NCBI GenBank assembly: GCA_963727445.1
Contig: CAVSGI010000014.1
Location: 64,001 to 128,000 of the forward strand
Reading direction: 5' to 3'
DNA length: 64,000 bases
Origin: an uncultured delta proteobacterium
Lineage (GTDB): Bacteria > Myxococcota_A > Polyangia > Polyangiales > B10-G4
Under the pieces are notes generated by a model. The model ran no database searches. It was not told where the DNA came from and saw only the letters and a list, made by a program, of their open reading frames with translations. Below, in pieces: positions 6,425 to 30,436 of the stretch. A program made the position numbers and the translations under genes. Each line of letters begins with the position of its first letter. Positions within the stretch are counted from its first letter, which is position 1.

Positions 6425-7297
6425 CTAGAGCATGCTCTTGAGGGTCTCGGCCATGTGGGACGGCGTCGGGGCGACCTTGACCCCGGCTTCCTCGAGCGCT
6501 GCGATCTTGGCGGCAGCGGTTCCCTTGCCGCCGCTGATGATGGCGCCCGCGTGTCCCATCCGCTTTCCGGGCGGGGCCGTGGTGCCGGCGATGAAGCCCG
6601 CGACGGGCTTGTCGAAGTGTTTCTTGATGTACTCGGCGGCCTGCTCTTCTGCGTTGCCGCCGATCTCGCCGATCATGATGACGCCGTCGGTGTCGGGGTC
6701 GTCCTTGTAGAGCTCGAGCACGTCGATGAAGTCGGTGCCGTTGACCGGGTCCCCGCCGATGCCGACGCAGGTGCTCTGACCGATGTCGAGGGCGGTGAGC
6801 TGTCCGACCGCCTCGTAGGTCAGCGTCCCGCTGCGGCTCACGACGCCGATGCGGCCGGGCTTGTGGATGTGGCCGGGCATGATGCCGATCTTGCACTCGC
6901 CCGGAGTGATGACGCCGGGACAGTTCGGGCCGATGAGGCGCGAGCGATCCTGGGAGTCGAGGACGCGACGCACCTTGATCATGTCGGCGACGGGGATGCC
7001 CTCGGTGATGGCGATGACGAGGGCGATGCCCGCGTCGACGGCCTCGAGGATGGCGTCGGCCGCGAAGGGGGGCGGAACGAAGATCGCCGTCGCGTTGGCG
7101 CCGGTCTTCTCGACGGCTTCGGCGACGGTGTCGAAGACGGGGACCTTGTCCTCGAACTTCTGGCCGCCCTTGCCCGGGACCGCGCCGGCGACGACGTTGG
7201 TCCCGTACGCCAGCATCTGCTGCGAGTGGAACGCGCCGGCCGAGCCGGTGATGCCCTGAACGACGAGGCGCGTGTCCTTGTTGACCATGATGGACAT
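6425..7297 (-). CDS. sucD: Succinyl-CoA ligase alpha subunit
   Basis: [35 protein letters not shown]. Confidence 0.98.
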
Positions 7298-7298
7298 G

Positions 7299-8480
<1,182 letters not shown>

Positions 8481-8490
8481 CGCATGCCCC

Positions 8491-10737
<2,247 letters not shown>

Positions 10738-11051: not shown

Positions 11052-11243
11052 ATGGGCGAGCAACAGGACGAGAACGAAGTGCAGGAGCTCCTCGAGGACG
11101 AGAGCGGGGTGGCGTACGTCGAGTACGTCATCCTCCTCTCTTTGGTCACCGTTCTGGGGTCGGTGGCTGTCTTCTCGGTGGGCCTGCCCTTCTTCACGAC
11201 CTACCGGTTCACTCAACTTCTGGTCGCGTTGCCGTTTCCATGA
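11052..11243 (+). CDS. Flp-like pilin (63 aa, atypical hydrophobic C-terminus)
   Basis: LLEDESG|VAYVEY followed by a hydrophobic helix. Confidence 0.75.
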   Translation: MGEQQDENEVQELLEDESGVAYVEYVILLSLVTVLGSVAVFSVGLPFFTTYRFTQLLVALPFP

Positions 11244-11266
11244 GTACAGCAGGGAGAAGCAGAACA

Positions 11267-11476
11267 ATGGCGAAGAAGCTGGATATCAAGAAGCGTCGTA
11301 CGACCGAGTTGCTCGAGGATACCGAGGGTCTGACGACCGTCGAGTACATCATCATCCTCTGCCTCATCGCCGTCGTAGGCTTTGCGGTTTGGAAGAAGTT
11401 CGGCGAGACCGTGAAGACGAAGGTCAATGGTGCCAACACCACCATGGGCACGCTTCCCTCGAGCCCCACGCCGTAA
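11267..11476 (+). CDS. flp: Flp family pilin, probable major pilin
   Basis: LLEDTEG|LTTVEYIIILCLIAVV Flp motif; AGGGAG RBS upstream. Confidence 0.9.
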   Translation: MAKKLDIKKRRTTELLEDTEGLTTVEYIIILCLIAVVGFAVWKKFGETVKTKVNGANTTMGTLPSSPTP

Positions 11477-11616
11477 TACCCCACGACGCCCAAAGGGGTG
11501 TGTTCGAGCGTTCTCGGTCGGCAGATCGGCGTCGCACGTCCGTGCGACCAGGTTGAGCTGCCGACCGAGGGCGGTCCACAGGTGAGGTGTCTTCAACGAC
11601 GGGGAAGTGACTCGGG

Positions 11617-12174
11617 ATGTTGATGTATTTGTTGATCCTCCATGCCTGCGCCATCGCCGTGACGGCGGTTGCCGCGGTCTGGGATTTGCGAACCGGACGC
11701 ATTCCGAACTGGCTCACCTTGCCGCCACTGGTGATCGCGCCCGTGGCGTACTTCTTCCTGTTCGATCTGGAGGCCGCCCTCTACTCCATCCTCGGCGCCC
11801 TCATCTGCGGCCTGGTGCCCTACTTCCTCTTCCGCCTGAAGACGGGCTCCGGCAGTCGCAAGGCCATGCATGGCGGGGACGTGAAGCTCTTCGCCGCCCT
11901 CGGCGCGATGCTCGGCATCTACTCGGGGATCGAGGCGCAGTTCTACACCGTCTTCGTCGCCGCCCTCTACGTGATGGCGCGCATGGCGTGGCACGGGAAG
12001 CTGCTGCGCGTCCTGGGCAACTCGCTGGCGCTCGTCGTCAACCCGCTGCTTCCCAAGAAGCGGCGCCGCGAGATCAACCCGGACCTCCTGCACACCATCC
12101 GTCTGGGCGGCGCGATCTTCGTGGGTACCGCGATCGCCGTCGCTCTGCGTCACCCCTACCTCCTCCCCATCTGA
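11617..12174 (+). CDS. cpaA: Prepilin peptidase (A24, CpaA/TadV)
   Basis: WDLRTGRIPNWLT and GGDVKLFAALG catalytic Asp motifs; multi-TM. Confidence 0.92.
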   Translation: MLMYLLILHACAIAVTAVAAVWDLRTGRIPNWLTLPPLVIAPVAYFFLFDLEAALYSILGALICGLVPYFLFRLKTGSGSRKAMHGGDVKLFAALGAMLGIYSGIEAQFYTVFVAALYVMARMAWHGKLLRVLGNSLALVVNPLLPKKRRREINPDLLHTIRLGGAIFVGTAIAVALRHPYLLPI

Positions 12175-13097
12175 TGAAGCAAACCCGAAACGCACCTGAG
12201 GACACGACTCTCGTCGGAGACACGCGTGGCGCGGTCTACGTCGAGTTCCTTCTCGCGTTCCTGCCGGTCTTCACGATGTTCCTGGGGATGCTCCAGGCGG
12301 GCCTCATGTATGGGGCGAACCTGGTCGTCACCCACTCGGCGAGCCGGGCCGCGCGCGCGGCCGCCGTCGTCCTCGACGCACCGGAGTCGGACTTCGACGG
12401 GGACGAGCGGATGCTCGTCGACTATGGGGCGTCCTCCGGGGGCACCGACGCCATCTGCATGCTGCTGAACGTGCTGAGCGTCCCCTGCAGCTTCACCGGC
12501 GGCGAGGGCAACGCACGGCTCAACGCGATCCGCGCGGCCGCCTCCTTCCCGCTCCTGCCGATCGCGCCGAGCCTCGACCAGCAGCTCCAGGACCGCCAGG
12601 TGCTGCGCGCCGTCGGCGGTGACCCGATGATGAGCCGCACCGTCAACGGCATCCTCTACAACCGCGGCGCCGTCTCGGTGAGCTTCCCCGATCATTCGGA
12701 GCGGCGCTTCACCGTCGGCCAGAACGAAAACCTCAAGGTCCGGGTCACCTACCTGTTCCACTGCGGGATCCCGATCGCCGCGCGGTACATGTGCGACGAC
12801 CCGAAGACGCTGCCGGCGCTCGGCGGCTTCCTGTCCTATCCCACGCTTCAGGACCGCGAGCTCTTCAACCTCTTTCGGCGCAGCGGCGTGACCGCCGACG
12901 AGATCCAAGCCCACCGCGAACGCGTCCGCATCACCGAAGCCCGCCTCGATCAAGCGCGCCGAGCTTCGCCCGACCTCCTCAAGGTCCAGTCGCCGGGCAC
13001 CCTCGCCGGCCTCGCCTTCGGCGGCGGCCGCTACACCATCCTGCAGGCGCAGAGCGCCATGCGGGTCCACACCGCCAACTACGAGTACTCGGACTGA
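12174..13097 (+). CDS. TadE-like pseudopilin (307 aa)
   Basis: DTRG|AVYVEFLLAFLP, hydrophobic helix, SASRAARAAAV; TGATG overlap with cpaA. Confidence 0.85.
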   Translation: MKQTRNAPEDTTLVGDTRGAVYVEFLLAFLPVFTMFLGMLQAGLMYGANLVVTHSASRAARAAAVVLDAPESDFDGDERMLVDYGASSGGTDAICMLLNVLSVPCSFTGGEGNARLNAIRAAASFPLLPIAPSLDQQLQDRQVLRAVGGDPMMSRTVNGILYNRGAVSVSFPDHSERRFTVGQNENLKVRVTYLFHCGIPIAARYMCDDPKTLPALGGFLSYPTLQDRELFNLFRRSGVTADEIQAHRERVRITEARLDQARRASPDLLKVQSPGTLAGLAFGGGRYTILQAQSAMRVHTANYEYSD

Positions 13098-14233
13098 TGA
13101 TCAACGCGATGAAGGAGCTCTTCCTGTCGACCGGGCATCCGCCTGAAGAAGACTCGAGCCATCGGCCCGGTCTCCTCGACGACGACGGCGGCGCCATGAT
13201 GGTGATGGGCATCTTCATGGCGGTGATCCTGGTCGGCGCCATCTACTACGTGCTCGGGATCGGCCAGTCGATCATCTACCACGAGCGCATGCAGGATGCG
13301 GCGGACGCTGGCGCATTCGGCGCAGCCGTCATCCACGCCCGCGGGATGAACATCCTCGCCTTCCTGAACATCGTCAGCGCCGCGGTGATGGCGGTCCTCG
13401 TCTGTCTCAAGGTGCTCGAATACCTGCTCCTCGCCGCCTTCACCATCGCGACGGCGATCTGTGCCGCCTGCAGCTGCCCGGGTTGTTGCGGGTGCTGTCT
13501 GATCTGCCCGGTCGCCGTGGTCCTGGGCTACGGCTACGACTACGTGTCCGACGTTCGAGAGGCCGCGGAGCCACCGATCGAGACCATCCTCGACGTGAAC
13601 AAGGAGATCATGGGCGTGGTCACCATAGGCATGCCCTACGTCGCGCAGGCGAAGGTGATGGACTATGGGTCGAACACCTTCAACAAGCCCACGCGCATGG
13701 CGGGGATGACCCCGCTCTTCGGCGAGCTGGCGGCGGAGCCGGATGACTCGAATCTCTTCTGCAAGAAGGCCAGCAACGTCGGTGGCCGGATGGCCGCCAC
13801 GCTGGTCGGCCTCTGGCCCATCCGGCAGTTCGTCGGGACGGCCACCGAGTCGCTGGCGCCGCTCTTCTGCGACGACGATGAATACGCCCATCGCGTGCTC
13901 GACGATGCGGACATGGGCGACGAGAACTTCCAGTTACGCGTCTACGTCCAGGGCGACCCACCATTTTCGCTCTACGAAAAGGGTGTGGGTGTCGCCGCCT
14001 GGGGTAGGACCGACGACGCGACCAACTACGAAGCCATGCAGGAGCTGACGAAGTACTCCTACGCCCAGGCCGAGTACTACATGGACACGGAGACCAACCG
14101 TGAGGAGTGGCTCTGGCGCCTGGACTGGCGCGCTCGGCTCAGACGGTGGGAGCTGGGTGGTGATGTGGGTGAGCTGGGCAGCGTCCTCGGAAGCGTCGTC
14201 CCGCTGGGTGATCTGAACTTCTCGGTGCACTGA
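13097..14233 (+). CDS. TadG-like pilus assembly protein (Tad domain, no vWA seen)
   Basis: DDGG|AMMVMGIF, MQDAADAGAFGAA motif; TGATG coupling. Confidence 0.8.
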   Translation: MINAMKELFLSTGHPPEEDSSHRPGLLDDDGGAMMVMGIFMAVILVGAIYYVLGIGQSIIYHERMQDAADAGAFGAAVIHARGMNILAFLNIVSAAVMAVLVCLKVLEYLLLAAFTIATAICAACSCPGCCGCCLICPVAVVLGYGYDYVSDVREAAEPPIETILDVNKEIMGVVTIGMPYVAQAKVMDYGSNTFNKPTRMAGMTPLFGELAAEPDDSNLFCKKASNVGGRMAATLVGLWPIRQFVGTATESLAPLFCDDDEYAHRVLDDADMGDENFQLRVYVQGDPPFSLYEKGVGVAAWGRTDDATNYEAMQELTKYSYAQAEYYMDTETNREEWLWRLDWRARLRRWELGGDVGELGSVLGSVVPLGDLNFSVH

Positions 14234-14772
14234 TGAAGACGCGGTCCACACTCCCGGCTCGAGACCACTCCGCTCCGGCCTTCTACGGGCGCCGCCGGAG
14301 GCGGCGCTCCGGCCACGCCACCGCCGAGGCGGTGATCATGATCCCGTTCTTCATCATGGTCTGGGGCTGCGTCATCTGGGCGAGCCAGTCTTTCGAGAAC
14401 GAGATCGATCTGGCGGCCAAGACCCGCGAGCACGCGTGGCAGCACGCCATGAACAACTGCAACGGCCCGAGCGGCGCGAGCGACGGCACGCAGGTCACGA
14501 GCTACTCGGGTGGCGGAATCATGGGCGCGGTCTCCGAGGTCACGAGCTTGATCGATCAGGTCATCGGCCTGTTCTCCTTCGCCAGCGAATGGCCCGGGCT
14601 GTCCTTCGACGAGCACGAGTACGTTCGCCAGGGCGTGGTGCCCTCGCCCGAGGTGGCCGGCGGCGAGGACCGGCAGACCTACTATCACGACGTGTTGATG
14701 TGTAACGAAGAGCACGACACGCCCGACATCGAAGAGACGGCGTGGAAGGCCTTCACGGTGTTCGGATTCTGA
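14233..14772 (+). CDS. TadE/TadF-like pseudopilin
   Basis: RRSG|HATAEAVIMIPFF plus hydrophobic helix; TGATG coupling. Confidence 0.75.
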   Translation: MKTRSTLPARDHSAPAFYGRRRRRRSGHATAEAVIMIPFFIMVWGCVIWASQSFENEIDLAAKTREHAWQHAMNNCNGPSGASDGTQVTSYSGGGIMGAVSEVTSLIDQVIGLFSFASEWPGLSFDEHEYVRQGVVPSPEVAGGEDRQTYYHDVLMCNEEHDTPDIEETAWKAFTVFGF

Positions 14773-15743
14773 TGGACAAGCCCAAGTACACACGAATGGG
14801 AGTGGTCTGGCGGGTCAAGCACTACGGCCCGAAGATCCTGCGGCTCAGCTTCTTCCTGGCGCTCGTCTACGTCGGCTTGCTCGCCGTCATCGGCTACCAG
14901 GCGCGGGCGCAGGTGAGTGAGCAGATGATGAGCCTGGGCGTCGACATGCTCCGCTACGAGGGCGCGGAGTATCAGCGCGCGCCGCGGACCATGTATCTGA
15001 ACGGCCAGGCGATGAAGCTCTCGACCGGCCTGGCGCCCCAGGATCTGACCTACGTCCTCGACTACTACGAGTCGCGCTGCCGCGACCGGAGCGGGCACCT
15101 CGGCGACCAGCTCCTCGAGCTGATGGAAGGCGACCCGGAGATCGGCGAGGCGGAGGCGCGCGTCCTCGACCCCACCCTGCGCGAAGAGGACGACGACGAA
15201 GGCTTCGTCGCATGCATCGACACGCTCAGCGACGAAAAGCTCGACCCCGAAGGCGTGGCCGCGGCCTTCGAGCGTTTCCAGAACTCGCTCGACCTCGCCG
15301 AGTTCGGCGAGATGCGATACATCTACGCCCAGCGCGCGGCGGAGGGCGGCACGTTCTTCGTGGCCTTCTGGATCGAAGGCTCCTTCAAGGTCGCCGACAT
15401 GTTCCCGGCCGAAGGCGATGCGCCGGGACGCGACGTCGCTGGCGTGCCCCGTCCCCCGAATTCGCGGCGGCTCCTCAGCACCTGGGAGGAAGACCAGCCG
15501 CAGGCGATCACCACCTACGTCGGAGGCACGCACGGGCCGGACGAGCTCGAGGAGTTCTACCGCGCCGAGATGCAGAGCGGCGGGTGGCACATCCTCGAGA
15601 TGGATCAGGACGTCCTCGACCAGCTCGGAGGCGCCCCGCCGCCCGAGAACTTCCTCACGTACGAGCAAGGCGACCGGATGGTCAGCATCGCGCTCTTGAA
15701 CAGCGATCAGGGCCCGACGGCGTCGATCCTCACGCACCGCTGA
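14772..15743 (+). CDS. Hypothetical membrane-anchored periplasmic protein in Tad locus
   Basis: Single N-terminal TM segment; TGATG coupling on both sides. Confidence 0.7.
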   Translation: MDKPKYTRMGVVWRVKHYGPKILRLSFFLALVYVGLLAVIGYQARAQVSEQMMSLGVDMLRYEGAEYQRAPRTMYLNGQAMKLSTGLAPQDLTYVLDYYESRCRDRSGHLGDQLLELMEGDPEIGEAEARVLDPTLREEDDDEGFVACIDTLSDEKLDPEGVAAAFERFQNSLDLAEFGEMRYIYAQRAAEGGTFFVAFWIEGSFKVADMFPAEGDAPGRDVAGVPRPPNSRRLLSTWEEDQPQAITTYVGGTHGPDELEEFYRAEMQSGGWHILEMDQDVLDQLGGAPPPENFLTYEQGDRMVSIALLNSDQGPTASILTHR

Positions 15744-16513
15744 TGTCGACTTCACGAAAGACGACGATCCTCCTCGCGCTCGCAGGCGCAGTGCTCGCGT
15801 CGGCGGTCGTGGCCTGTGAGGATTCGGACCCGCTGCCGCGCGAAGAGGATCTTCCCAACATCCCGCGTGAGCCCGTCGATCGCCTCGGGCGCGACGACAC
15901 GACGCAAGAGGCCATGCCGGTGCGCACCAAGGTGGTCTCCGATGGCCCCTCGGACACGATCACCCTCGGCGCCTACCGCGCCGGAGGGGCTGGCGGTGGC
16001 GGGGATCGGTTGCGCGGCCGGCCGCCAGGCTTTCCCCGCGGCACCCGACAGGAGCCCGAAGACATGCACGCCGCCGCCCGTGACGCGGTGAGCCAGCAGC
16101 GGCGCGCCGGCTCCGAGGCGTGTCAGCTCGCCTACGAGGCCGCGCGCGATCTGCGTCAGGCGCGTCAATCGAAGACCCCGGGTCGCGGAAGCGGCTCGGT
16201 CGATCGCGACCAGTTCATCGAGATGTGCGAGCTCCGCCCGGACATCGAGCAGTGGTGTCTGGTGCCGAGCTACGTGCAGCAGCACTCCGACGAGTGCGAT
16301 CAGCGGGCCCACACGCGCTACGCGCGGGCCATCGAGCGTTACGAGAACCGCGCTGGCGGCGCCGCCGACGACTGGGCACCTGCCGCCGATCCCTCTTCGC
16401 CGCCAGGACCTGCCGCCGTCGACGCGCCCCAGGTCGGACCGCGAAGGGTCCCGGGGCCGGAGGACAGCGAAGGGAGCGACACGACGCCCGATTCTGCCGA
16501 GGAGGGTGAGTAG
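15743..16513 (+). CDS. Hypothetical lipoprotein
   Basis: Lipobox VVAC-ED; four Cys in C-terminal helical part; TGATG coupling. Confidence 0.7.
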   Translation: MSTSRKTTILLALAGAVLASAVVACEDSDPLPREEDLPNIPREPVDRLGRDDTTQEAMPVRTKVVSDGPSDTITLGAYRAGGAGGGGDRLRGRPPGFPRGTRQEPEDMHAAARDAVSQQRRAGSEACQLAYEAARDLRQARQSKTPGRGSGSVDRDQFIEMCELRPDIEQWCLVPSYVQQHSDECDQRAHTRYARAIERYENRAGGAADDWAPAADPSSPPGPAAVDAPQVGPRRVPGPEDSEGSDTTPDSAEEGE

Positions 16514-16560
16514 CCCGGCCACGATTGACTCTGCGCGTCGCGCCCTCGCATGATGCCTCC

Positions 16561-17553
16561 ATGAAGAGCTCCCCCATCTTCACCCTCTGCCTCGGTGCCG
16601 CGCTCGCAATGGCGGCATGCGGCGACGACGGCGGCGCCGGCGACGGCGGGGGCATGGACGCGACGGGGCCGGGCGGCGAAGGCGCCGCCTGCAGCACCTT
16701 CACCGACTGCCGCTCCGACCTCGATTGCATCATGGGCGTCTGCACCGCCCCCGCGGGCGCGATGGGGGATCGCTGCATCTACACCGAGCGCTGCATGGAC
16801 GGTCTCTACTGCTCCGTTCCCCGCACCTGCCAGCCCGAGGGCTCCGGCACGCTCTTTTCGACATGCACCGACAGCGGCGACTGCGAAAAGCCCCTCGTCT
16901 GCGCGATGGAGGGGGGCTCTCTCCGCTGCGTGATGGGCGGGACGGGCGATATCGGGCCGCCGGGCGACCCCTGCACCACCCTGGCGGATTGCCTGCCCGG
17001 TCTCTTCTGTATGGGCGGGGTCTGCACGGGTGAAGGGGGCAGCGGCGCGGACGCCGGTCTCGACGGGAGCGGCGGCGACGGTGGGCCCTCGGACGCGAGC
17101 GCGGACGTGGGCGGCCCCTGCGAAACCGTCACCGACTGTGACGACATGAACGAGTGCACCATCGACCAGTGCGTGGGCACCCGATGCCAGTACACGCTGC
17201 AGGACGGTGACGAGGACGGCTACGCCAGCACCCTCTTCGGGAGCTCCTGCCGCGACTGCAACGACATGAACGCCGACGTCAATCCGGACCACACCGAGTT
17301 CGAGACCACGCGTCACACCGACATGCTCCCGGGCACGCCCGACAGCTTCGACTGGAACTGCGACGGGATGGACGAGCTCCAGTATCCGAGCCGCGTCCCG
17401 GCGTGCGACAGCGTTGCCGGCACCTGCTCGAGCGGGGAAGGCTGGGCGGGCGCGGTCCCCGGATGCGGCATGAGCGGCACGTGGGCGAGCTGCAGCGGTC
17501 CGCCGGGCTGCACCATCAGCACCATCGAGACCCGCGTTCAGGGTTGCCGCTGA
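16561..17553 (+). CDS. Cysteine-rich lipoprotein with putative metal-binding motif
   Basis: Lipobox MAAC-GDD; repeated C-x4-C-x4/5-C-x3/4-C units; DGDEDGY..DCNDMNADVNP..DWNCDG. Confidence 0.75.
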   Translation: MKSSPIFTLCLGAALAMAACGDDGGAGDGGGMDATGPGGEGAACSTFTDCRSDLDCIMGVCTAPAGAMGDRCIYTERCMDGLYCSVPRTCQPEGSGTLFSTCTDSGDCEKPLVCAMEGGSLRCVMGGTGDIGPPGDPCTTLADCLPGLFCMGGVCTGEGGSGADAGLDGSGGDGGPSDASADVGGPCETVTDCDDMNECTIDQCVGTRCQYTLQDGDEDGYASTLFGSSCRDCNDMNADVNPDHTEFETTRHTDMLPGTPDSFDWNCDGMDELQYPSRVPACDSVAGTCSSGEGWAGAVPGCGMSGTWASCSGPPGCTISTIETRVQGCR

Positions 17554-17556
17554 CGA

Positions 17557-17967
17557 GTGATGCACCGCCTCCTCCCCCTGCCCTTCCTGTTGTTCCTCAC
17601 GACGGCCTGCTCCGGCCCGGACCCCGTCGACGAGACGCACGAGGGAACACTCAGCGACGCGGATCAGCGCCACCACTCCGACGGCTCGTTCTATGACGAG
17701 TACGAGATCGAGGCGGGCGAGGGCTATCGCATCGTGGTGACGATGGAGTCCGCCGAGCTCGATCCCTTCCTGCACGTCTTCGGGCCCGAGGACTCGCCGG
17801 ACCAGCAATGGCAGAACGACGATCGGGCGGGCGACGACCGGAGCGCGCGTATCGAAGAGACCGCGCCGGTCTCCGGCACCTACACCATCTGGGCAAACTC
17901 CCACCGAGAGGGGGAGACGGGCAGCTACCGTCTCCGCATCCAAACCGAGCGACCCGCGGGCGGGTGA
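17557..17967 (+). CDS. Lipoprotein with pre-peptidase C-terminal (PPC)-like domain
   Basis: Lipobox TTAC-SG; YDEYEIEA..DPFLHVFGP..NDD..SGTYTI..GSYRL. Confidence 0.75.
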   Translation: MMHRLLPLPFLLFLTTACSGPDPVDETHEGTLSDADQRHHSDGSFYDEYEIEAGEGYRIVVTMESAELDPFLHVFGPEDSPDQQWQNDDRAGDDRSARIEETAPVSGTYTIWANSHREGETGSYRLRIQTERPAGG

Positions 17968-18113
17968 AGAGAGGCCATGTTCGCTGATTCATTCAGTAAG
18001 TACGTCGCGACGCCGGGGGCTGGCCAGGCCCGGGAGTCGCTCATAGGCCCCAGGGACGAAGGGGCCAGTCGGCCGTGGAGGCGGGGGTGGTTTTTCGATA
18101 GGATTCCGCCGAG

Positions 18114-18905
18114 ATGAACCGTGCAGCCTTCGTTGCCGCCGCCGTGGCGGCGCTCATCGGCCTCGCGCTCCTGTGGCTGTACATGAAGCGCTTCGAGGAG
18201 GAGTCCTCGGGTGGGTCGCCCATCGCCGTGGTGATGGCCACCCAGGACATCCCACTCGGGGCGACGATCACCAACGAGATGATCGGCATTCGCAACCTTC
18301 CGTCGTCATACGTGGAAGAGCGCCACATCCGCGCCGCCGACGCGGAGCGCATCGTCGGCGTCCGCGTCAGCATGGGCGTCAAGGCCAACGAGTCGCTGCT
18401 CTGGACCGACCTGGCGACGACCGCCCAGCAGCGGCGAGACCTCTCCGGTCTGGTCCGCAACGGCATGCGCGCGATCACGGTCAAGGCCGAGATGGAGAGC
18501 GCCTTCGGTGGCCTGCTCCGGCCGGGTGACCGCGTGGACGTGCTGCTGACCACGATGAAGGAGGCCAGTCGGGAGCAGGTGACGATCCCGCTGCTGCAGA
18601 ACGTGCTGGTGCTCGCCGTCGGCGCCGATGTCGGCGCGACCCAGTCCGCGCGCCGCGACCCGCGCCAGCGCTACCGCGAGGTCTCGCTCAGCACCACCGT
18701 CGAGCAGGCGCAGATCCTCGCCTTCGCCGGAGACGCGGGGAAGATCACGCTGATCCTGCGCAACCCGGACGACATCGCGATCCTCGAGGAGCTTCCCGAG
18801 ACGACCGCGAGAGACATCATGGAGATCGAGCAACGCCGCGCGCTCATCCGGCGCGAGCCCACGCAGGGTCCGCGTCTACCCGTGAACCTCGGGGGCATGC
18901 AATGA
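18114..18905 (+). CDS. cpaB: Flp pilus assembly protein CpaB/RcpC
   Basis: N-terminal TM, SAF domain (VMATQDIPLGATI), GMRAITV, LRPGDRVDVL, LLQNVLVLAVG. Confidence 0.93.
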   Translation: MNRAAFVAAAVAALIGLALLWLYMKRFEEESSGGSPIAVVMATQDIPLGATITNEMIGIRNLPSSYVEERHIRAADAERIVGVRVSMGVKANESLLWTDLATTAQQRRDLSGLVRNGMRAITVKAEMESAFGGLLRPGDRVDVLLTTMKEASREQVTIPLLQNVLVLAVGADVGATQSARRDPRQRYREVSLSTTVEQAQILAFAGDAGKITLILRNPDDIAILEELPETTARDIMEIEQRRALIRREPTQGPRLPVNLGGMQ

Positions 18906-20077: not shown

Positions 20078-20088
20078 GGCCCACCCGT

Positions 20089-21957
20089 ATGAGCTCCAGC
20101 CACCCGCAGACCATCTATCTGGGGATCGAAACCGCCGACGGCGGAATGGAGCGGCTTCGCATCGACGAGGTCGGCCCGGTCTTCATCGGTCGTGACCAGT
20201 CGTGCCACGTGGTCCTGCCCTCGCCCGACGTGTCGCGCCGGCACGTGGCGCTCAAGGCCGAGGACGGACGGGTGCGCCTCACCGACAAGAGCGCCAACGG
20301 CACCTTCGTGGGAGAGCGCGGCAAGCGGGTCCACAACACCACGGTGATCATCGGACCCGGCGTTCCCTTCCGGGTGGGCCCCTACAACCTACAGGTGCTC
20401 CCCGACCGCGAGCATGCGCGGGCGCGCGTCAGCCACGGTCCGGTGGCGGCGCCGGAGATGCCCGAGAACAACGACTTCGCCCCCAGCCCCGACGACGCGA
20501 CCCTCGCGCCGCAGGACATGGAGCAGATGCGCCGCGACCGCGATGCCGCGGCGGCTGCGGCCGCGGAGGCTCGGCGCCAGCGCGACGAAGCACAGAAGAA
20601 GGAAGTCTCCGTCGTCGGCTCGCTGGCCTCACGCATCCCGCAGCTCGGTTCGCGCTCGCCCAAGTCGAGCGCCTACGGGTCGAGCGGCACGGCGATGGTG
20701 CCGGTGGAAGCGCGCCGCACCATCCACCGGATGCTCCTCGATCACCTCGACCTCGCGAGCCTCGATCGCAACAAGATGGACGACCGCAGCATGCGGCCGA
20801 AGGTGCGTGAAGCGTTGACGCGCATCGTCCGGGCGGCGGCATCGAGCCTGCCCGATGGGACGAGCATCGCCGCGCTCATCGAGGAGATCACCGACGAGGC
20901 GCTGGGCCTCGGCCCGCTCGAGGCGCTCCTCGCCGACGAGCTGGTGAGCGAGATCATGGTCGTTGACCCGAACACGATCTTCATCGAGCGAGGGGGCAAG
21001 ATCGAGCTCACCGATCTGCGCTTCACCGACGACGACGCGGTTCGCGCGTGCATCGAGCGCATCGTCACGCCCCTCGGGCGGCGCATCGACGAATCGACGC
21101 CGCTGGTGGACGCCCGCCTCGCCGATGGCTCGCGCGTCAACGCGGTCATCCCACCGCTGGCCCTCCGCGGCCCCTGCATCACGATCCGAAAGTTCGCGAA
21201 GGATCCGCTCACCATCGATCACCTGATCAAGTTCGGGGCGATGACCGAGCAGATGGCGCTCTTCCTGACGCGCACCGTGGTGACGCGTCAGAACGTCATC
21301 ATCAGCGGCGGCACCGGCAGCGGTAAGACGACCCTCCTCAACGTGCTCTCGGCGGCGATCCCCGCGGACGAGCGCATCGTCACCATCGAGGACGCCGCCG
21401 AGCTCCGGCTGGTGCAGCCGCACGTGGTCTCCCTCGAAGCGCGCCCGCCCAACATGGAGGGCAAGGGGGCGGTGACGATCCGCGATCTCGTGAAGAACGC
21501 CCTGCGCATGCGCCCCGACCGCATCGTCGTCGGCGAGTGTCGAGGCGGCGAGGCGCTGGACATGCTCCAGGCGATGAACACCGGTCACGAGGGCTCGATG
21601 ACCACCACGCACGCCAACAGCCCTCGCGAAGCGCTCAACCGTCTCGAGACGCTCTGCCTGATGAGCGGGATCGAGCTGCCTTCGCGCGCGATCCGCGAGC
21701 AGATCGCCAACAGCGTCGACATCATCCTGCAGCAGACGCGCTTCTCCGACGGCTCGCGCCGCATCACCGCCATCACCGAGGTGACCGGCATCAACGACGA
21801 GGGCGAGATCGAGCACGCGGACATCTTCCGCTTCGTCCGCACCGGCACCGGGAAGGACGGAAAGGTGCTCGGCGAGTTCCAGGCGACGGGATACCTGCCG
21901 ACATTCCTCGACGACTTCATCACCCACGGGCTCGTGGCGGAGGGGGACTACCTCTAG
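20089..21957 (+). CDS. cpaF: CpaF/TadA ATPase with N-terminal FHA domain
   Basis: FHA: IGR..VSRRH..SANGT; ATPase: [53 protein letters not shown]. Confidence 0.95.
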
Positions 21958-22117
21958 TGCCTGGTCCAATGACACAGAAGGGTTCTCGCTCGTTCGTCGC
22001 CCGCCTCGCCGCGTCGACAAACCTCGAATGTGCGCTGCACGTCCTTCGGTATCCCTCCTTGCGACGCGACCGACGTCCGTCGCGATCTCCCCTTCCGTAT
22101 CATCGGACCAGACACTA

Positions 22118-22990
22118 GTGCCTTACCTCAACCGCATCTCGCTCGATTTTCTCGCCTACGGCGGCATTTTGCTGACCGTCATCGGCTTCGTGGTGGGTGG
22201 GACCATCCTCGCCGTCGACGAGCACGGCTGGGTCCGTCGCAACTACGACAAGTACGTCAAGGCCATCGACGCCGAGCACAAGTTCCTCTTCATCGACAAG
22301 CCGGGGAAGAACACGGCCAAGGGACAGCTGCTATCCAGCCTCGTCTGCCTGGTGGTGGGCATCTTCATGGAGGAGCCCCTGCTCCTGGTCTTGATCCCGA
22401 TCATCGCGACCCTGCCGATGTACTCGCTCAAACGGCAGCACCAGAAGCGCCTCGAGCAGCTCGAGCTCCAGCTCGACTCCTGGCTCCTGATTCTGGCGAA
22501 CGCGCTCAAGGCGACGCCCAGCCTCGGTGAAGCCATCCGCGCCAGCGCCAAGATCATGCGCCCGCCGATCGGTCAAGAGCTCGACCTCCTGCTCAAGGAG
22601 ATCAACCTGGGCACACCGCTGGACATCGGCATCCGCAGCATGTCGGAGCGTATCGCCAGCCCCATGATCAGCGGCGCCCTCGCCACCATCCTGGTCGGGC
22701 GTCAGACGGGTGGTGACATCCCGCGCATCCTCGAAGAGTCCGCAGCCACGCTGCGCGAGATGCAGCGGCTCGAAGGCGTGGTCCGCACCAAGACGGCAGA
22801 GGGCAAGTCGCAGGCCTACGTCCTCGGAGTGATCCCCTTCGTCCTGATCGGCGCCATCCAGATCATCGATCCCAACTGGCTCAGGCCGCTGACGGAGACG
22901 ACCATTGGCTTCATCGTGATCGCCGTCGCGATGGTTCTTTGGATCGGGGCCATCTTGGCGGCGCGTAAAATCCTCGCGGTGGACGTCTAG
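22118..22990 (+). CDS. tadB: TadB inner-membrane platform protein (start uncertain, 22028-22118)
   Basis: T2SSF-like domain, QTGGDIPRIL, KTAEGKSQAYVL, C-terminal TMs. Confidence 0.88.
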   Translation: MPYLNRISLDFLAYGGILLTVIGFVVGGTILAVDEHGWVRRNYDKYVKAIDAEHKFLFIDKPGKNTAKGQLLSSLVCLVVGIFMEEPLLLVLIPIIATLPMYSLKRQHQKRLEQLELQLDSWLLILANALKATPSLGEAIRASAKIMRPPIGQELDLLLKEINLGTPLDIGIRSMSERIASPMISGALATILVGRQTGGDIPRILEESAATLREMQRLEGVVRTKTAEGKSQAYVLGVIPFVLIGAIQIIDPNWLRPLTETTIGFIVIAVAMVLWIGAILAARKILAVDV

Positions 22991-22998
22991 GAAGTCGC

Positions 22999-23907
22999 GT
23001 GTTCGGCATCAAGCTCCAGATCATCGGCTACACAGGCGCAGGGATGCTCGCCCTGGCGCTCTTCGTGGTGGTCTACACGCTGGCCAAGAGCTCGCCGACC
23101 CTGGCGCCGGCCACCGGGGCGCGCGGCCTCAAGCGTGCGCGCGCCCTCGACGAAGGTGGCTCCTTCGCGACCATCGAGCCCTTGATGCGGTTGGTCGCGA
23201 GCTGGGTGGCGCCCTTCCCCCTCCCCAAGCTGCGCAAAGACATCGATCGCCAGCTGGTCCTCGCCGGCGACTGGTTGGGCCTCACGGCCAACGAGTTCAT
23301 CGCGCTCTCGATGCTCTCGTCGGTGCTCTTCCTGGCCATCGGCCTCATCGGCGGCCAGGTCATGGAGCTCTCGCCGCTCTTCAGCTTCTTCTTTCTCGGC
23401 GTCGGCGCCATGCTCCCCTACCTTCGGATGACCGGCGAGACGCAAGACCGCTTCAAGGCGATCAATCGCGGATTGCCCACCCAGATCGACCTCGCCTCGC
23501 TCTGCATGGGCGCCGGCCTCGATTTCCCGGGCGCGCTGCGCCAGATCGTCGACAAGGCGGTCGACAAGCGCAACCCGCTCGTCGAAGAGGTCATGCGCAT
23601 CCTGCAGGAGCTCGATCTCGGGCGCACCCGAAAGCAGGCCCTCGAGAACTTCGCCGAGCGCTGCCCCACGGACGCGGTCCGCGACTTCGTGGGCGCGGTG
23701 GTCCAGGCGGAGGAAAAGGGCAATCCTCTCGCCGAGGTCCTGCGGATTCAGGCTCGCATGCTGCGCATGCGGCGGAGCATCATGGCCGAGGAGAACGCCG
23801 CTCGCGCGGCGGTGTTGATGATGGGGCCCCTGATGCTGATCTTCTGCGCCATCATCCTCATCCTCCTCGGACCTTTCATCATCAACGGGATGAATAGCGG
23901 CTTCTGA
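22999..23907 (+). CDS. tadC: TadC inner-membrane platform protein
   Basis: LPTQIDLASLCMGAGL, ELDLGRTRKQAL, QAEEKGNPLAEVLR, AEENA. Confidence 0.9.
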   Translation: MFGIKLQIIGYTGAGMLALALFVVVYTLAKSSPTLAPATGARGLKRARALDEGGSFATIEPLMRLVASWVAPFPLPKLRKDIDRQLVLAGDWLGLTANEFIALSMLSSVLFLAIGLIGGQVMELSPLFSFFFLGVGAMLPYLRMTGETQDRFKAINRGLPTQIDLASLCMGAGLDFPGALRQIVDKAVDKRNPLVEEVMRILQELDLGRTRKQALENFAERCPTDAVRDFVGAVVQAEEKGNPLAEVLRIQARMLRMRRSIMAEENAARAAVLMMGPLMLIFCAIILILLGPFIINGMNSGF

Positions 23908-24785
23908 TGGACTCCTGGCTCGTAGTCAGCCGCGCAGACGGCAGCACGGTACGTCACGCCATCGAGGGCGAGCAGGCGACCGTCGGCAAGTCGCCCACCG
24001 CCGGGATCCCGCTGGTGAACTGCGAGGAGCTGATGGACGAGCACATGCTCGTCGCGCCCCGGCCCGACGGCTGTTGGGTCTCGGTCCGCGCCGGTGCATT
24101 CCCGGCGGTGACCCTCAAGGGTCGCACCATCGAGGGGGAGATCGTCCCCTGGAACTCCGAGCTCAAGGTCGGGCAGGTCACCATCCTGGTCACCGACAAG
24201 CTGTCGGCGGAGCGGAAGGGGTCGGGGGACAAGCCGGTGAGCTCGCCGGTGATGGTGCTGATGTTCGTGCTCATCCCGCTCGTCGGCTGGTTGGTCCTCT
24301 CCGATCCGGAGGCTTCGCTGCCCACCGGCCCGGAGGGCGCGCCTCCCGAGCTCTTCGATGCCGTGACCGAGTGTCCCGACTCGGGCTCGGCAGCGCTCCA
24401 TCACGCCCAGGAGGCCGCCGAAGCCGCGAGCCACCGAGCCGAGCGCTATCCCTTCGCGGCGCAAGACGGGGTGCAGGCCGTTCAGCTCTACGCCACCGCC
24501 GAGCTCTGTTACGCAGCGGCCGGTCAGCGAGGAGACTCGGCGCGCATCCGCCGCGAAAAGGAAGCGCTGCAGCAACGCCTCGAAGAGGACTACCGCACGC
24601 ATCGCCTCCGGCTCGAGCGCGGTCTCGAGCTCGAGCGCTGGGACGAGGCGCTGATCGAGGCCAAGAACCTCAACGACCTCCTCGCGCATCGCCAGGACAC
24701 GGAGTACGGGCAGTGGATGGAGCTGCTCGAAAGGCGCCTGCAGCTCATGGTGGATCAGGCGCTCAGCCGCCAGGAAGACCAATGA
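23907..24785 (+). CDS. Single-TM protein with degenerate FHA-like N-terminal domain
   Basis: TVGK..EH beta-rich N-terminus, TM segment, helical C-terminal part; TGATG coupling with tadC. Confidence 0.6.
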   Translation: MDSWLVVSRADGSTVRHAIEGEQATVGKSPTAGIPLVNCEELMDEHMLVAPRPDGCWVSVRAGAFPAVTLKGRTIEGEIVPWNSELKVGQVTILVTDKLSAERKGSGDKPVSSPVMVLMFVLIPLVGWLVLSDPEASLPTGPEGAPPELFDAVTECPDSGSAALHHAQEAAEAASHRAERYPFAAQDGVQAVQLYATAELCYAAAGQRGDSARIRREKEALQQRLEEDYRTHRLRLERGLELERWDEALIEAKNLNDLLAHRQDTEYGQWMELLERRLQLMVDQALSRQEDQ

Positions 24786-25477
24786 ACCTTCGCCTGAGAG
24801 CACTCGTGCTCTGCGGCTTCCTCGCCGGCTGCGGAGCTCGTCAGAACCCCGAGACGGAAGAGCCCCCGCCCGTCGATCCCGTGGACGACGTCGAGGCGAC
24901 GGTGCTCTTTCGGCAGGGCGTCGAGCTCGCGCACGGCGGCGATCTGACGCGGGCCGAGCAGTACATCGGCGCCGCGATGGTCCGCGGATACCCAAGGGAC
25001 CGGGCGCTCCCGGTGTTGATGAGGGTGTGCATCGCCGCTTCGCGGCTGCGCGTGGCCATCGGCTACGCCGAGCCCTACCTCGCCGAGAACCCCCGCAACT
25101 GGTCGCTCCGTCTCGTGGTGGGCTCGCTCTACCTCAGCCTGGATGAGCCGGTGAAGGCGCGGCGCCACCTCGAGGCCGTGATCCACCAGAAGCCCGACGA
25201 GCCCGAGGCGTATTACTTGATGGGCCTGTTGATGCGAGACGAAGTGGGCGACCCCGACGCCGCGCACGACAACTTCGCGCGCTACCTCGAGCTCGCGCCG
25301 GAGGGGCAGCACCAGGAGGAGGCGTCCTACGCCCTGTCGACGCTGCGGATCGCGGTCCACCACGCTCCCGGCGCCGCCACCGGGGAGGAAGACGAGGACA
25401 CCGAAACCAACGCGCGCCCGAACGCGGACGACGACGCCGAGACCGAGAGCGAGACCGAGACCGAGGACCAGCCATGA
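24782..25477 (+). CDS. TPR lipoprotein (TadD/pilotin-like)
   Basis: Lipobox LAGC-G; TPR repeats (PEAYYLMG, YLELAPEG). Confidence 0.75.
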   Translation: MNLRLRALVLCGFLAGCGARQNPETEEPPPVDPVDDVEATVLFRQGVELAHGGDLTRAEQYIGAAMVRGYPRDRALPVLMRVCIAASRLRVAIGYAEPYLAENPRNWSLRLVVGSLYLSLDEPVKARRHLEAVIHQKPDEPEAYYLMGLLMRDEVGDPDAAHDNFARYLELAPEGQHQEEASYALSTLRIAVHHAPGAATGEEDEDTETNARPNADDDAETESETETEDQP

Positions 25478-26605
25478 CGATCCCGCGCGAAGTATTCGAG
25501 CAGACGGTGCTGTCGTTCTTCGGGCCCATCCGTCCCTTCCTCGACGACCCGACGGTCAGCGAGGTGATGATCAACGGCTACAACGAGATCTGCGATCGAA
25601 CGGAAGGGCAGACTCCACCGCACCGACGCGCGCTTTTCCAACCTGGAGGCGCTCGTCTCGGCGATACGCAACCTCGCGCAATTCGTCGGCCGTCACGTAG
25701 ACGAGCACCGCCCGATCCTCGAGGCGCGCCTGCCCGACGGATCCCGCGTCGAGGCCATCCTCCCACCGGCCTCCCCCGACGGTCCCAGCGTCGCCATCCG
25801 TCGCTTCTTTCGCGAGACCCTCACGATCGAGCGCCTGATCAACTTCGGCTCGGTCACCGGCGACGCGGCCGGCTGCCTGCAAGCCCTCGTGGCCGCGAAG
25901 AACAACGTCATCGTGGCGGGAGGCACCGGCTCTGGAAAGACCTCGCTCCTCAACGTGCTCTCGGGTTTCATCGGTGACGGAGAGCGGATCGTGGTCATCG
26001 AGGACTCGCGCGAGCTACAGCTCCAAAAGCCCCACGTGGTCATGCTCGAGGCCCGCCCCCCGGACGCGAAGGGCCGGGGCAAAGTGAGCATCCGCGATCT
26101 CTTCAAGGCGACGCTGCGCATGCGCCCCGACCGGATCGTGGTCGGTGAGATCCGAAGCGGCGAGGCGCTCGATCTCGTACAGGCCATGACGTCCGGCCAC
26201 GGCGGCGCCCTCTGCACCGTTCACGCGACCTACCCCATCGACACCATGAACCGCCTCGAGACGATGGCGATGATGAGCGACGTGGAGATCCCGCTCTACG
26301 CGCTGCGCGCGCAGGTGGGCTCTGCAGTGGACATCGTCGTGCAGACCTCCCGCCTCCAAGACGGGTCGCGCTGTATCACCCACATCACGCAGGTCGTGGG
26401 CTACGATCAGGAAAAGGGCTACCTGCTGGAAGACCTCTTCATCCGGCGCTACACCGGTCGTGATCCAGAGGGCCGCGTGCTCAGCGACTTCCGCCCCACG
26501 GGAAATCTGCCGCGCTCCCTCGAGATGATCCGCGCCATGGGAATGGAGCTGCCGCCGAGCATGTACGACGCCCACGAACGCCTGAAGGCGGGTCATCACC
26601 CGTGA
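25474..26605 (+). CDS. Second, short CpaF-family ATPase (~376 aa); apparent frameshift at ~25593
   Basis: GPIRPFLDDPTVSEVMING; after removing one base: [54 protein letters not shown]. Confidence 0.88.
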
Positions 26606-28134
26606 GCTGGGTCAAGCTCCAGCTGACCCGCGGGAGCTCCGGCGGCCAAGAGTGGCAGGTCGACGCGTCGGCCGCGGGCGCGCGCATCGAGGTGGGCACG
26701 GATCCCGAGTGCAGCTGGGTGGTGCAGGCGCCGGGTGTGGCGCCGAAGCACCTCGAGATCTATTGGGATGGAGAGGTGCTGTGGGTCGCGCGGATCCACG
26801 GAGCGGGCGAGGTTCGGGTCGACGGGTTGATGGTCGACGACTGGTACGCGACCGCCAAGGGGTCGATGATCCGTTTCGGCGAGGCCGAGATGCGCGTGGA
26901 CGCAGGCGCGGCCGCGCTCGACACCTCGGGTGTCGCCAACCGCGATCGTGAGACGGCGCGGATCGCGGGCCCCGACGCGCACGCCGAAGCCAAGACCCGC
27001 ATGGCGTCTCCCTCTGCGGCGGCGCGCGGCGAGTCGCCCTCGCTCCCCGACGGACCCACGGCCATCCTCGCGACCCCCGAGAGCAAGCACGACCCCCACA
27101 TCGCCGCCGCCGCGACACAGATCGTGAAACCGGCCGCTCCCAGACAAGGCGATGACGATGCCGCAGGCCGCATCGCCGCTTTCGAAGCACAGATGCGCGC
27201 CGGAGGCGGGCCTGGTCACGGCGACGATCCGGCTCCCCTCCCCTCCGGGCAGGCGACGCAGCTCGTCGCGCTGCCCGACGCGCCTGGTGCGCCCGCCGCC
27301 CCCACCGGACGACGTCCTCCTCCACCCCGAATCGGCGCCAACGTCTCGCGCGTGGAGCGTGAGCCGACGCCCGTCCCCCCTCAGCCCGCGCCCGTCCCAA
27401 GCGCCGAGACCCCGAGCGTGATCGTCGGCAACGTGGAGCCGTCACAGCCCAACGCGGCCGGGCCCGCGGATCAGAGCGGCCCTGCCCCGGCGGCCGACAA
27501 CCCCTTCGCGGCACCGCCGGTCGACGATCGAAAGAGTCGCAGGGAGCGCCGACGCGCCAGGGGCGAGAAGGCCACCTCGCTGCCGATCCGAACGTGGCTC
27601 TTGTTGGTGGCCACTGTCGGCGCGCTCCTCTTCGTCCTCTTCATGGACGACGAGGAAGAAGCGGTGCCCACCCCGCCCGACGCCGGCCAAGAGGCGCAGG
27701 CGGGGGACAGCGGGAGCGGGAACGGGAGCGAGAGCGGGAACGGGAACGGGAACGGGAGCGGGAACGAGAACGGGAGCGAGAACGGGAACGAGAGCGAGAG
27801 CGAGAACGGGAGCGAGAACGGGAACGGGAACGAGAACGGGAGCGAGAGCGAGAGCGAGAACGGGAGCGAGAACGAGAGCGGGAACGAGAGCGAGGGCGAG
27901 AACGAGGGCGAGGGCGAGGGCGAGGTAGAGGACGGCGCGCTCGTGCGGCGCGCGGTCGATGCGCTGGTCGCCAACCGCCAGCGGGAGGCCTATGACCTCT
28001 ACGGTCGCCTCGCCGACGAGCACCCCGACGTGCCCGCCTACGAGGCGATCCACGACATTCTCCGGCGGCGGCTCCAAGCTTCATGCACCGACGGTGTCGA
28101 TCTGCAGGGCAACCCGTGCGAGGAGGTCGAATGA
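26602..28134 (+). CDS. FHA-like domain / disordered linker / TM / low-complexity periplasmic protein
   Basis: EVGT..GVAPKH..VRVDG..IRFG N-terminus, Pro/Ala linker, TM (WLLLVATVGALLFVLF), GNGSEN repeats; GTGA overlap. Confidence 0.7.
   Translation: MSWVKLQLTRGSSGGQEWQVDASAAGARIEVGTDPECSWVVQAPGVAPKHLEIYWDGEVLWVARIHGAGEVRVDGLMVDDWYATAKGSMIRFGEAEMRVDAGAAALDTSGVANRDRETARIAGPDAHAEAKTRMASPSAAARGESPSLPDGPTAILATPESKHDPHIAAAATQIVKPAAPRQGDDDAAGRIAAFEAQMRAGGGPGHGDDPAPLPSGQATQLVALPDAPGAPAAPTGRRPPPPRIGANVSRVEREPTPVPPQPAPVPSAETPSVIVGNVEPSQPNAAGPADQSGPAPAADNPFAAPPVDDRKSRRERRRARGEKATSLPIRTWLLLVATVGALLFVLFMDDEEEAVPTPPDAGQEAQAGDSGSGNGSESGNGNGNGSGNENGSENGNESESENGSENGNGNENGSESESENGSENESGNESEGENEGEGEGEVEDGALVRRAVDALVANRQREAYDLYGRLADEHPDVPAYEAIHDILRRRLQASCTDGVDLQGNPCEEVE
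27710..27925 (+). repeat. Hexamer tandem repeat (GGGAAC/GAGAAC/GAGAGC/GGGAGC) encoding a G/N/S/E linker
   Basis: Directly visible, about 36 units. Confidence 0.95.
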
Positions 28135-28829
28135 AGCAGAAGTGGCTCGTGCTCGGAATCGCGGCGTTCGGTCTGTTGGCCTGCGCCTGCGAGGAACCGA
28201 AGCCCCTGCCCCAGTTTCGGGTGACCTTCATCGCCGAATCCGATGGGGAGCCGCTCTCCAACGTGCGGGTGGTGGCCGACGGTCAGGTGCTGGGCGAGAC
28301 CGGAGAGAACGGCGAGCTCGGCGTGGAGATCACCGGGCGCGAAGGCCAGGCCATGGCGGTCAATGCGCAATGCCCGGAAGGTCATCGCGCGCCGGAGCAA
28401 CTGCCCCTGCTCACCCTCCGCACCTTCCAGGGTCTGGGCGAGGAAGCGCGCCAGCGCGGCATCGAGATGACCATCTCCTGCCCGCCCGCGGAGCGGAGCG
28501 CAGCGGTGGTGATCCGTGCGCTCAATCAGGACGATGAGCCGGTGCCCGACCTTCCCGTGAAGGTGCGCGGTCAGGAGCTCGCCCGGACCGACGAATCGGG
28601 CGTCGCACACCTCTCCTTTTCCCTTCGCCCGAACAGCACCTTCCGCGTGCTCCTCGACACCGAGGGTCTCGACGACATCCGGCCTCAGAACCCGGGGACT
28701 ACCTTCACCGTGCCCGACTCCGACGAGTACTTCGTCATGAATCAGACCTTCCACGTTCAGCGCCGCCGGCGTCGGCGTCGCCGGGTGGTCGCCCCCATGG
28801 CTCCACCGATGCCGATGCGGATCGACTGA
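28131..28829 (+). CDS. Lipoprotein with two beta-sandwich (carboxypeptidase-regulatory-like) repeats
   Basis: Lipobox LLAC; GEPLSNVRV..GETGENG and EPVPDLPV..RTDESG repeats; Arg/Pro tail. Confidence 0.65.
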   Translation: MKQKWLVLGIAAFGLLACACEEPKPLPQFRVTFIAESDGEPLSNVRVVADGQVLGETGENGELGVEITGREGQAMAVNAQCPEGHRAPEQLPLLTLRTFQGLGEEARQRGIEMTISCPPAERSAAVVIRALNQDDEPVPDLPVKVRGQELARTDESGVAHLSFSLRPNSTFRVLLDTEGLDDIRPQNPGTTFTVPDSDEYFVMNQTFHVQRRRRRRRRVVAPMAPPMPMRID

Positions 28830-30389: not shown

Positions 30390-30436
30390 CGGGTAGAGGT
30401 AGCACGCGCTTGGGCCGATCCCGGAAAAAGCGCCGC

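Follow-up and report, generated by a model that had tools for sequence, protein, structure and literature searches.

Gene content and layout of the locus

The stretch of DNA analysed here, hereafter the window, is a 64,000-nucleotide segment from an uncultured delta proteobacterium of the order Polyangiales (assembly GCA_963727445.1, contig CAVSGI010000014.1, positions 64,001 to 128,000); the source genome amounts to 9.47 Mb in 27 contigs and is 85.6% complete. Between positions 11052 and 28829 the window carries 20 co-directional plus-strand genes which form a full Tad gene set and likely encode a complete Kil-like Tad pilus serving to touch and hold prey. Neighboring genes overlap at 11 of the 19 junctions (six TGATG, four ATGA and one GTGA), in agreement with an initial sequence-only reading that had described about 20 co-directional, mostly overlapping genes. 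From first to last, the genes are flp, flp, cpaA, three pseudopilin genes, protein U, three accessory lipoprotein genes, cpaB, cpaC, an FHA-fused cpaF (cpaF1), tadB, tadC, X16, a TPR lipoprotein gene, a second cpaF (cpaF2), X19 and an Ig-like lipoprotein gene. Flp pilin, prepilin peptidase, RcpC, secretin, TadA/CpaF, TadB and TadC are all recognized by Pfam, TIGRFAM and structure comparison. The part list of the sequence-only reading holds for this Tad set and for the FHA-like proteins X16 and X19; its second cpaF, however, is not an open frame in the assembly, and the first of its two flp genes has no pilin Pfam match.

The core of the machine begins with cpaB/rcpC (18114–18905), which contains SAF and RcpC domains and scores over the cut-off for TIGR03177, followed by the cpaC/rcpA secretin (18902–20077; 391 aa), assigned by a secretin family match. 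CpaF1 (20089–21957; FHA and T2SSE) is organized as an FHA domain, a linker, a three-helix bundle and an ATPase, and represents the main motor of KilF type, while the platform proteins TadB (22118–22990) and TadC (22999–23907) both match T2SSF. X16 (23907–24785) has no Pfam match and consists of a domain found FHA-like by profile comparison, a membrane span and a helical outer domain; the FHA part matches Kil-cluster FHA proteins at 95.5%, and near full length the protein matches the post-tadC gene of family f32 at 97%. The TPR lipoprotein (24782–25477), recognized by TPR families, may be a pilotin. CpaF2 (25474–26605), the second T2SSE match, is a short ATPase without the three-helix bundle, and is frameshifted near 25594 in the assembly. 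X19 (26602–28134) consists of a degenerate FHA domain (E 1e-4), a linker with Thr motifs, a membrane span, a low-complexity stalk and a helical tip; its orthologues vary, the FHA part being missing in several. The final gene (28131–28829) encodes the Ig-like lipoprotein that travels with cpaF2, for which weak Big_1/MG4 matches were obtained and the Atlas gave unnamed Myxococcota clusters with weak Ig-like leads.

No match to the TadZ/ParA or CpaD families was found among the 20 locus proteins with Pfam and TIGRFAM profiles, as the sequence-only reading had stated for TadZ/CpaE and CpaD. CpaD was also not found genome-wide, in a search in which the Caulobacter control gave a match and the 85.6% completeness of the genome has to be considered. 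In the genome-wide TadZ_N search no control gave a match, so the TadZ negative covers the 20 locus proteins only.

A strong CpaF1 match is present in 31 of 40 order-level relatives, each time accompanied by a second, shorter match; the other nine have neither, which may reflect genome incompleteness. Twenty loci were fetched from 19 of these 31 relatives, picked as best matches with long contigs. The succession tadC, X16, second ATPase recurs in all 19 genomes fetched, so the arrangement is not due to chance. The Kil-like Tad locus is real and extends across the order, and it had been recorded before as a cluster of Kil homologues. The Ig lipoprotein gene comes next in 17 of the 20 loci, and the accessory lipoprotein genes occur in only two or three. 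The two-ATPase locus is seen in families f25, f27, f33, f44, f52 and f59 as well, with different genes following cpaF2 in f33, f44 and f59; in family f32 the block of cpaF2, X19 and Ig lipoprotein genes lies outside the core, either at a distance of 6–9 kb on the opposite strand or at another place. Where cpaF2 has left the core, the Ig lipoprotein gene remains its neighbor. Two CpaF genes, both encoding putative motors, are thus present here and in 19/19 order-level genomes fetched, departing from the single bifunctional motor ATPase expected of a Tad pilus.

Upstream of the core, flp1 (11052–11243; 63 aa) is pilin-like by sequence and position, adjoins flp2 in relatives too and is probably a minor Flp. 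The product of flp2 (11267–11476; 69 aa), with a below-cut-off Flp_Fap match (E 6e-5), is likely the major Flp pilin, and the cpaA/tadV prepilin peptidase (11617–12174) is recognized by Peptidase_A24. Protein U (14772–15743; 323 aa) is a membrane-anchored exported protein, conserved across the order and modeled with a pLDDT of 85. Its C-terminal domain resembles PA1624 in model comparison, a middling match (Z 10.7, rmsd 2.5, 97 aligned); Foldseek gives nothing for the model at E<=0.001, and the Atlas clusters are unnamed. Three accessory lipoprotein genes follow: a lineage-restricted one (15743–16513), a Cys-rich one (16561–17553) which has paralogous repeats elsewhere in the genome and occurs together with the former in 3/20 fetched loci, and one with a below-cut-off PPC domain (17560–17967), found in 2/20.

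Between cpaF1 and tadB lies a 164-bp repeat resembling a miniature inverted-repeat transposable element (21954–22117), with inverted ends of ~22 bp bounded by CTAG. It gives 37 blastn matches in the genome, many near full length, is missing from the same junction of a same-genus genome, and may influence tadB coupling. The locus is flanked on the minus strand by a tricarboxylic acid cycle operon (icd, mdh, sucC, sucD; 6425–10737) and a gene for a XerD-like recombinase (29508–30716), both named from translations; the GC content of the locus is like the rest, and nothing points to an island. The whole locus is retained in a genome of 1.8 Mb that is 96% complete (L139, G123), and two genomes of 2.7–2.9 Mb (L014/L146 of G028; L016/L145 of G008) hold two copies each, with both ATPases. 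This retention in reduced genomes hints at a vital attachment role.

CpaF2, a CpaF without the three-helix bundle

Tad pili are textbook single-motor pili, and the way in which one Tad ATPase drives both extension and retraction is a matter of active debate. Judged from its sequence, CpaF2 is an old CpaF paralogue. It forms a clade of its own (100/100 in a careful 56-row LG+G4 tree and 100 in a larger quick tree, neither containing VirB11), and among its members are ABF88515.1 of M. xanthus DK1622, with the UniProt accession Q1DE98, and, from Bdellovibrio sp. HCB288, an orphan ATPase (L177). An identity as VirB11/TrbB was rejected based on CpaF and VirB11 scores of 319 and 135 bits and Foldseek E values of 4e-44 and 4e-27, respectively. 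Of 31 Myxococcaceae examined, 25 have an orphan CpaF2, which is whole in 24 and in pieces in one; 11 loci were placed by tree. MXAN_1327, also tried as the M. xanthus cpaF2, was rejected as a gltD homologue. As M. xanthus has this unlinked orthologue, the second motor of the two-motor system named in the sequence-only reading is not special to the locus.

The alignment of CpaF2 with Caulobacter CpaF starts only at residue 148, and the three-helix bundle is found in 0/54 CpaF2 compared to 63/63 ordinary CpaF, from which the bundle profile itself was built. The predicted model has just a short helical stretch ahead of the N-terminal domain (NTD), agreeing with bundle loss. The bundle is part of the minimum architecture of CpaF (three-helix bundle, NTD and CAD) according to Yen 2025 (PMC12019362; here and below, papers and preprints are cited from the accessible part of their text), and CpaF2 falls short of this architecture. 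Counts were made on intact relatives along with the window copy, in which an X was placed at the break; the sequences are related, so that the counts are not independent events, six divergent clade members are excluded, and within these bounds the Walker A Lys, Walker B Glu and R347 finger are kept in 55/55 CpaF2. Predicted extension contacts of CpaF are R206, E331 and D208, the first two being named in PMC12019362; R206 and E331 are found in 63/63 ordinary CpaF but in only 2/55 and 4/55 CpaF2, with D208 in 30/55. On the retraction face, the beta13-14 turn retains its R, G, R residues in 55/55.

In the window itself, one extra base near 25594 splits cpaF2 into pieces of 40 and 336 codons, and a genome also split at this gene is that of L012, the gene being intact in 18/19 relatives fetched. 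These two broken frames speak for a true pseudogene in this organism, which would leave the machine with one motor. That is very unlikely, as an intact copy with 88% identity exists in the same genus, and frameshifts occur in 8/84 conserved genes tested genome-wide, cpaF2 included. Further, sctU is split as well, and metG, in the same window (48049–50128, minus strand), is broken into two frames, which points to indels in the assembly. Two public DNA runs hold a small share of this genome and neither resolves the base near 25594; the break is nonetheless very probably an assembly error.

In one proposed model, CpaF uses its N face for extension and its C face for retraction (Whitfield 2026, preprint 10.64898/2026.02.24.707734), and Kil pili of M. 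xanthus do retract. The spoiled N face and kept C-face turn of CpaF2 fit a retraction-side helper like PilT. In the mechanism proposed here, FHA-bearing CpaF1 would engage TadB/TadC by its N-terminal face and extend Flp, and CpaF2, like PilT lacking an N1 domain, would engage them by its C-terminal face and add retraction force. That CpaF2 is such an auxiliary retraction-side motor is put forward tentatively, the residue pattern making it possible but well short of probable. Several observations weigh against it. Loss of R387 prevents retraction in Caulobacter; this residue is retained by just 10/55 CpaF2 (0/11 Myxococcaceae) but by 8/8 KilF, and KilF therefore looks able to retract alone. Conservation of the C-terminal motif in Polyangiales is 0.48 for CpaF2 compared to 0.75 for CpaF1, and in Myxococcaceae, CpaF2 is extended at the C terminus by a low-complexity tail of some 200 aa; in Caulobacter, a C-terminal fusion to CpaF blocks retraction (10.64898/2026.02.24.707734). 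In addition, CpaF2 is distant from the core in family f32 and Myxococcaceae, and in Bdellovibrio the rcpA2-tadA2 module is dispensable (10.64898/2026.07.08.737194).

Features of the FHA proteins bring in another role. The FHA domain of CpaF1 keeps the consensus G-R, S-R-x-H, N-G-T, the phospho-Thr-binding motif, and the FHA domain of X19 is degenerate. Linkers of X19 and the CpaF2 tails of Myxococcaceae are rich in acidic Thr motifs; by a pattern chosen after seeing the sequences, X19 holds 30 compared to 7.9 +/- 2.9 in shuffles, and 10 Myxococcaceae tails hold 9 compared to 1.4 in shuffles. With 135 kinase-type motifs in the genome, these features make a phospho-controlled assembly of the machine plausible at the level of sequence. 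Ser/Thr kinases would phosphorylate the Thr motifs of X19 and similar linkers, on which the FHA domain of CpaF1 would dock, building the machine at the contact point in place of TadZ. CpaF2 could then be a regulator or placement factor which, either incorporated into CpaF1 hexamers or tethered by X19, would switch or localize the machine under Thr phosphorylation in a TadZ-like role. Both platform faces of CpaF2 are partly degenerate, cpaF2 is translationally coupled to X19, the Myxococcaceae copies carry Thr-motif tails, and in three of five listed Myxococcaceae loci a Ser/Thr kinase lies 2–3 genes away. The fully kept catalytic and arginine-finger residues, however, fit an active hexamer better than a scaffold. 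Such a regulatory role is rather improbable when taken by itself, and nearly as likely as that of an auxiliary retraction motor.

The separation of cpaF2 from the core in some lineages could also mean that cpaF2, X19 and the Ig lipoprotein constitute a separate module (e.g. for effector hand-over, a link to a gate of the type III secretion system (T3SS) kind or to gliding), merely co-transcribed with the pilus genes in Polyangiales. The three genes stay joined outside the core in family f32 (L101, L103, L104, L160), the genes after cpaF2 differ in f33, f44 and f59, and the gene is an orphan in Myxococcaceae. CpaF2 is nevertheless a CpaF by sequence and fold, is not accompanied by a separate set of platform genes, and divides into subclades that largely follow the CpaF1 pattern, so that an independent module appears unlikely.

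Returning to the retraction motor, its widest form is that predatory Tad systems arrived anew at the two-motor arrangement known from type IVa pili: a CpaF copy from an ancient duplication would have lost its extension face and become a dedicated retraction ATPase, and ABF88515.1 would be an overlooked second Kil motor gene of M. xanthus, revealed by the in-operon position of its orthologue in Polyangiales. As a whole this generalization is doubtful, and it can be examined directly, as the operon points to a named, unlinked gene in a strain whose Kil pili have been imaged; this orthologue together with the face-by-face residue pattern makes the retraction-motor idea directly testable. A natural CpaF paralogue without the extension face but with catalysis is also a ready test of the face-inversion model. 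For these bacteria, no description of a second Tad ATPase, or of one lacking the bundle, was found in the literature, where some paywalled papers, figures and supplements could mention one, and the M. xanthus copy is apparently unstudied. Anything new would lie in the bundle-less second CpaF, the Kil homologue cluster itself having been on record before.

Other CpaF-like ATPases were noted along the way. A third short CpaF of this genome (L141:9913-10971, G000 contig C2), tried as a member of the CpaF2 clade, falls outside it by tree; along with the one in L144, it is an orphan that keeps the extension pore-loop glutamate, and its bundle looks to have been lost independently. An FHA-bearing, degenerate CpaF-like ATPase (L142:8777-10696, G000 contig C11), whose Walker A lacks the lysine, adjoins an Hsp70-like DUF3731 gene and by its sequence is possibly a pseudo-ATPase. 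In the uncultured bacterium of L083, the first ATPase groups with a Lentisphaerota one and the in-locus second ATPase is sister to the Myxococcaceae orphan.

Kinship with Kil and the role of the pilus

A core tree of CpaB, CpaF, TadB and TadC was computed from 62 systems, with no alphaproteobacterial Tad included, by quick search under LG+G4. The window core falls within a 22-row clade with family f32 (SH-aLRT 100), whose CpaF matches, by eye, the Bradymonadales rows of Seef's alignment. This clade is nested in a 45-row clade (99) which holds Myxococcaceae Kil, Bdellovibrio and FHA-type Pseudomonadota and Lentisphaerota systems, and is separate from the ordinary Tads of Myxococcota/Acidobacteriota, which make up a clade of 10 rows. 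Kil may be the direct sister of the window core: the approximately unbiased test does not reject this (p-AU 0.67), though the four-protein tree does not show it. Kil loci were recognized by the order cpaA-cpaC-FHA-cpaF-FHA; in the phylum sample, the order kilA-kilC-kilF-kilD was absent from the loci fetched, and Myxococcaceae were reached via a named locus.

The three pseudopilins provide further evidence of kinship. The TadE-like protein that opens the Tip-like triad (12174–13097; TadE), the TadG-like large pseudopilin in a KilN-like position (13097–14233; weak Tad match) and the third pseudopilin (14233–14772) correspond one-to-one and in the same order to one triad of Myxococcaceae kil cluster II. 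In profile comparison the match is 68% over 262 columns to triad gene 1 for the first, 91.7% over the N-terminal 72 columns only for the second and 90.9% over 89 columns for the third, that is 68–92% and mostly N-terminal. An ATPase fused to an N-terminal FHA domain is a mark of Kil that CpaF1 bears, though it is not Kil-specific. The genome also contains non-flagellar T3SS gate genes (sctR/S/T/U/V/J-like), scattered singly and not clustered (export-gate sites at G000 C10:91584-93656, C10:3529-4612, C21:543013-543681, C21:203595-204528 and C14:201684-202208); SctV is non-flagellar and, compared with the two Myxococcaceae types, fits neither decisively. Given the core tree, the triad, the FHA-like X16 and the undecided T3SS type, the locus is called Kil-like of Bradymonas type and not Kil proper. 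That it encodes a Tad pilus of the Kil-like group is almost certain.

This placement bears on how the locus had first been read. Its separation from ordinary Tads is borne out for those sampled, the core sitting with the Bradymonadales type in a clade with Kil and Bdellovibrio; of the idea of a related but differently built system, the kinship stands through the Kil-like core and the triad, but the one-locus core had been published already. Consecutive KilB-C-F-G-H matches are reported in Sandaracinus, Minicystis and Chondromyces (Herrou 2025, PMC12075869), and cpaB, cpaC, cpaF, tadB and tadC are consecutive in Bradymonas sediminis (DN745_00680-00700; PMC8460266). FHA-CpaF is a known class III, mostly betaproteobacterial (Yen 2025, PMC12019362), and therefore no marker of predation. 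With these one-locus cores and this class published, neither the single locus nor the FHA-rich content is new.

The proposed mechanism would end in predation, a role that is probable by a modest measure. The points against it are that FHA-CpaF occurs in non-predators, which are also found in the 99 clade holding Kil, Bdellovibrio and the window core; that there is no two-FHA KilD-type gene within the locus, the rest of the genome not having been searched for KilD, and X16 and X19 match KilD over the FHA only; that the Tip, KilP and KilA profiles have no match in the seven Polyangiales rows covered in the accessible part of PMC12075869; and that Polyangium is reported to be without the system (PMC10196010). 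The pilus could instead be a general adhesion or surface-sensing Tad without a killing role, which is likewise suggested by the Pseudomonadota and Lentisphaerota FHA-CpaF systems in the same broad clade and by a T3SS not assignable to either Myxococcaceae type. The nearest characterized relatives, however, are in predators, and the Tip-like triad is present. Sorangium, further, is a cellulose degrader. Tad (kil) homologues are reported in four Polyangiales genera and, in the accessible text, not in Sorangium or Polyangium (Wang 2023, PMC10196010), the absence from Sorangium being given in PMC12075869 as well. An adhesion pilus without killing is therefore not the favored explanation and is thought rather unlikely. 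The locus also represents a parts list for contact behavior in Polyangiales, an abundant soil order.

Comparison with known systems

The closest likeness is to the Kil-like cluster of Bradymonas sediminis, for which we know of no killing test. As in the window, its cpaB-cpaC-cpaF-tadB-tadC core is contiguous (PMC8460266), and in the f32 loci matching Bradymonas an FHA gene and then a TPR gene come next. These loci possess cpaF2 and fall into one clade with the window core. They are unlike the window in that the peptidase and tip genes are unlinked and that cpaF2, X19 and the Ig lipoprotein gene lie off the core.

Kil of M. xanthus (MXAN_3102-3108 and 4648-4661; PMC8460266, PMC12075869) shares with the window the FHA-fused ATPase (KilF; Seef 2021, PMC8460266), the pseudopilin triad and FHA accessory genes after tadC, and there is no TadZ among its kil genes listed in the accessible text of PMC8460266, nor among the 20 genes of the window. 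It differs in being divided over two clusters, in having KilD, a cytoplasmic protein with FHA and TPR domains, and a BON-bearing secretin, and in being described as a single-ATPase system (PMC8460266), whereas the window has a single locus that includes cpaF2 and protein U, and its tip domains are different.

In comparing the second ATPase to characterized motors, CpaF of Caulobacter crescentus (PDB 8RJF, 9E24; PMC12019362) has the ATPase fold and catalytic residues in common with CpaF2; it is however a single bifunctional motor with the three-helix bundle, where CpaF2 is without the bundle and the extension-face R206 and E331. PilT/PilU of type IVa pili offer an analogy, also being a case of a second ATPase without a variable N1 domain, but they belong to another family at 17–18% identity, and the AIRNLIRE motif of PilT has no equivalent in CpaF2, CpaF having the beta13-14 turn at that position (10.64898/2026.02.24.707734). 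Bdellovibrio bacteriovorus, with tadA2 and tadA3, is a predator that, like the window, has more than one TadA; of these, tadA2 can be dispensed with, while tadA3 receives no more than a mention in the accessible part of that preprint (10.64898/2026.07.08.737194).

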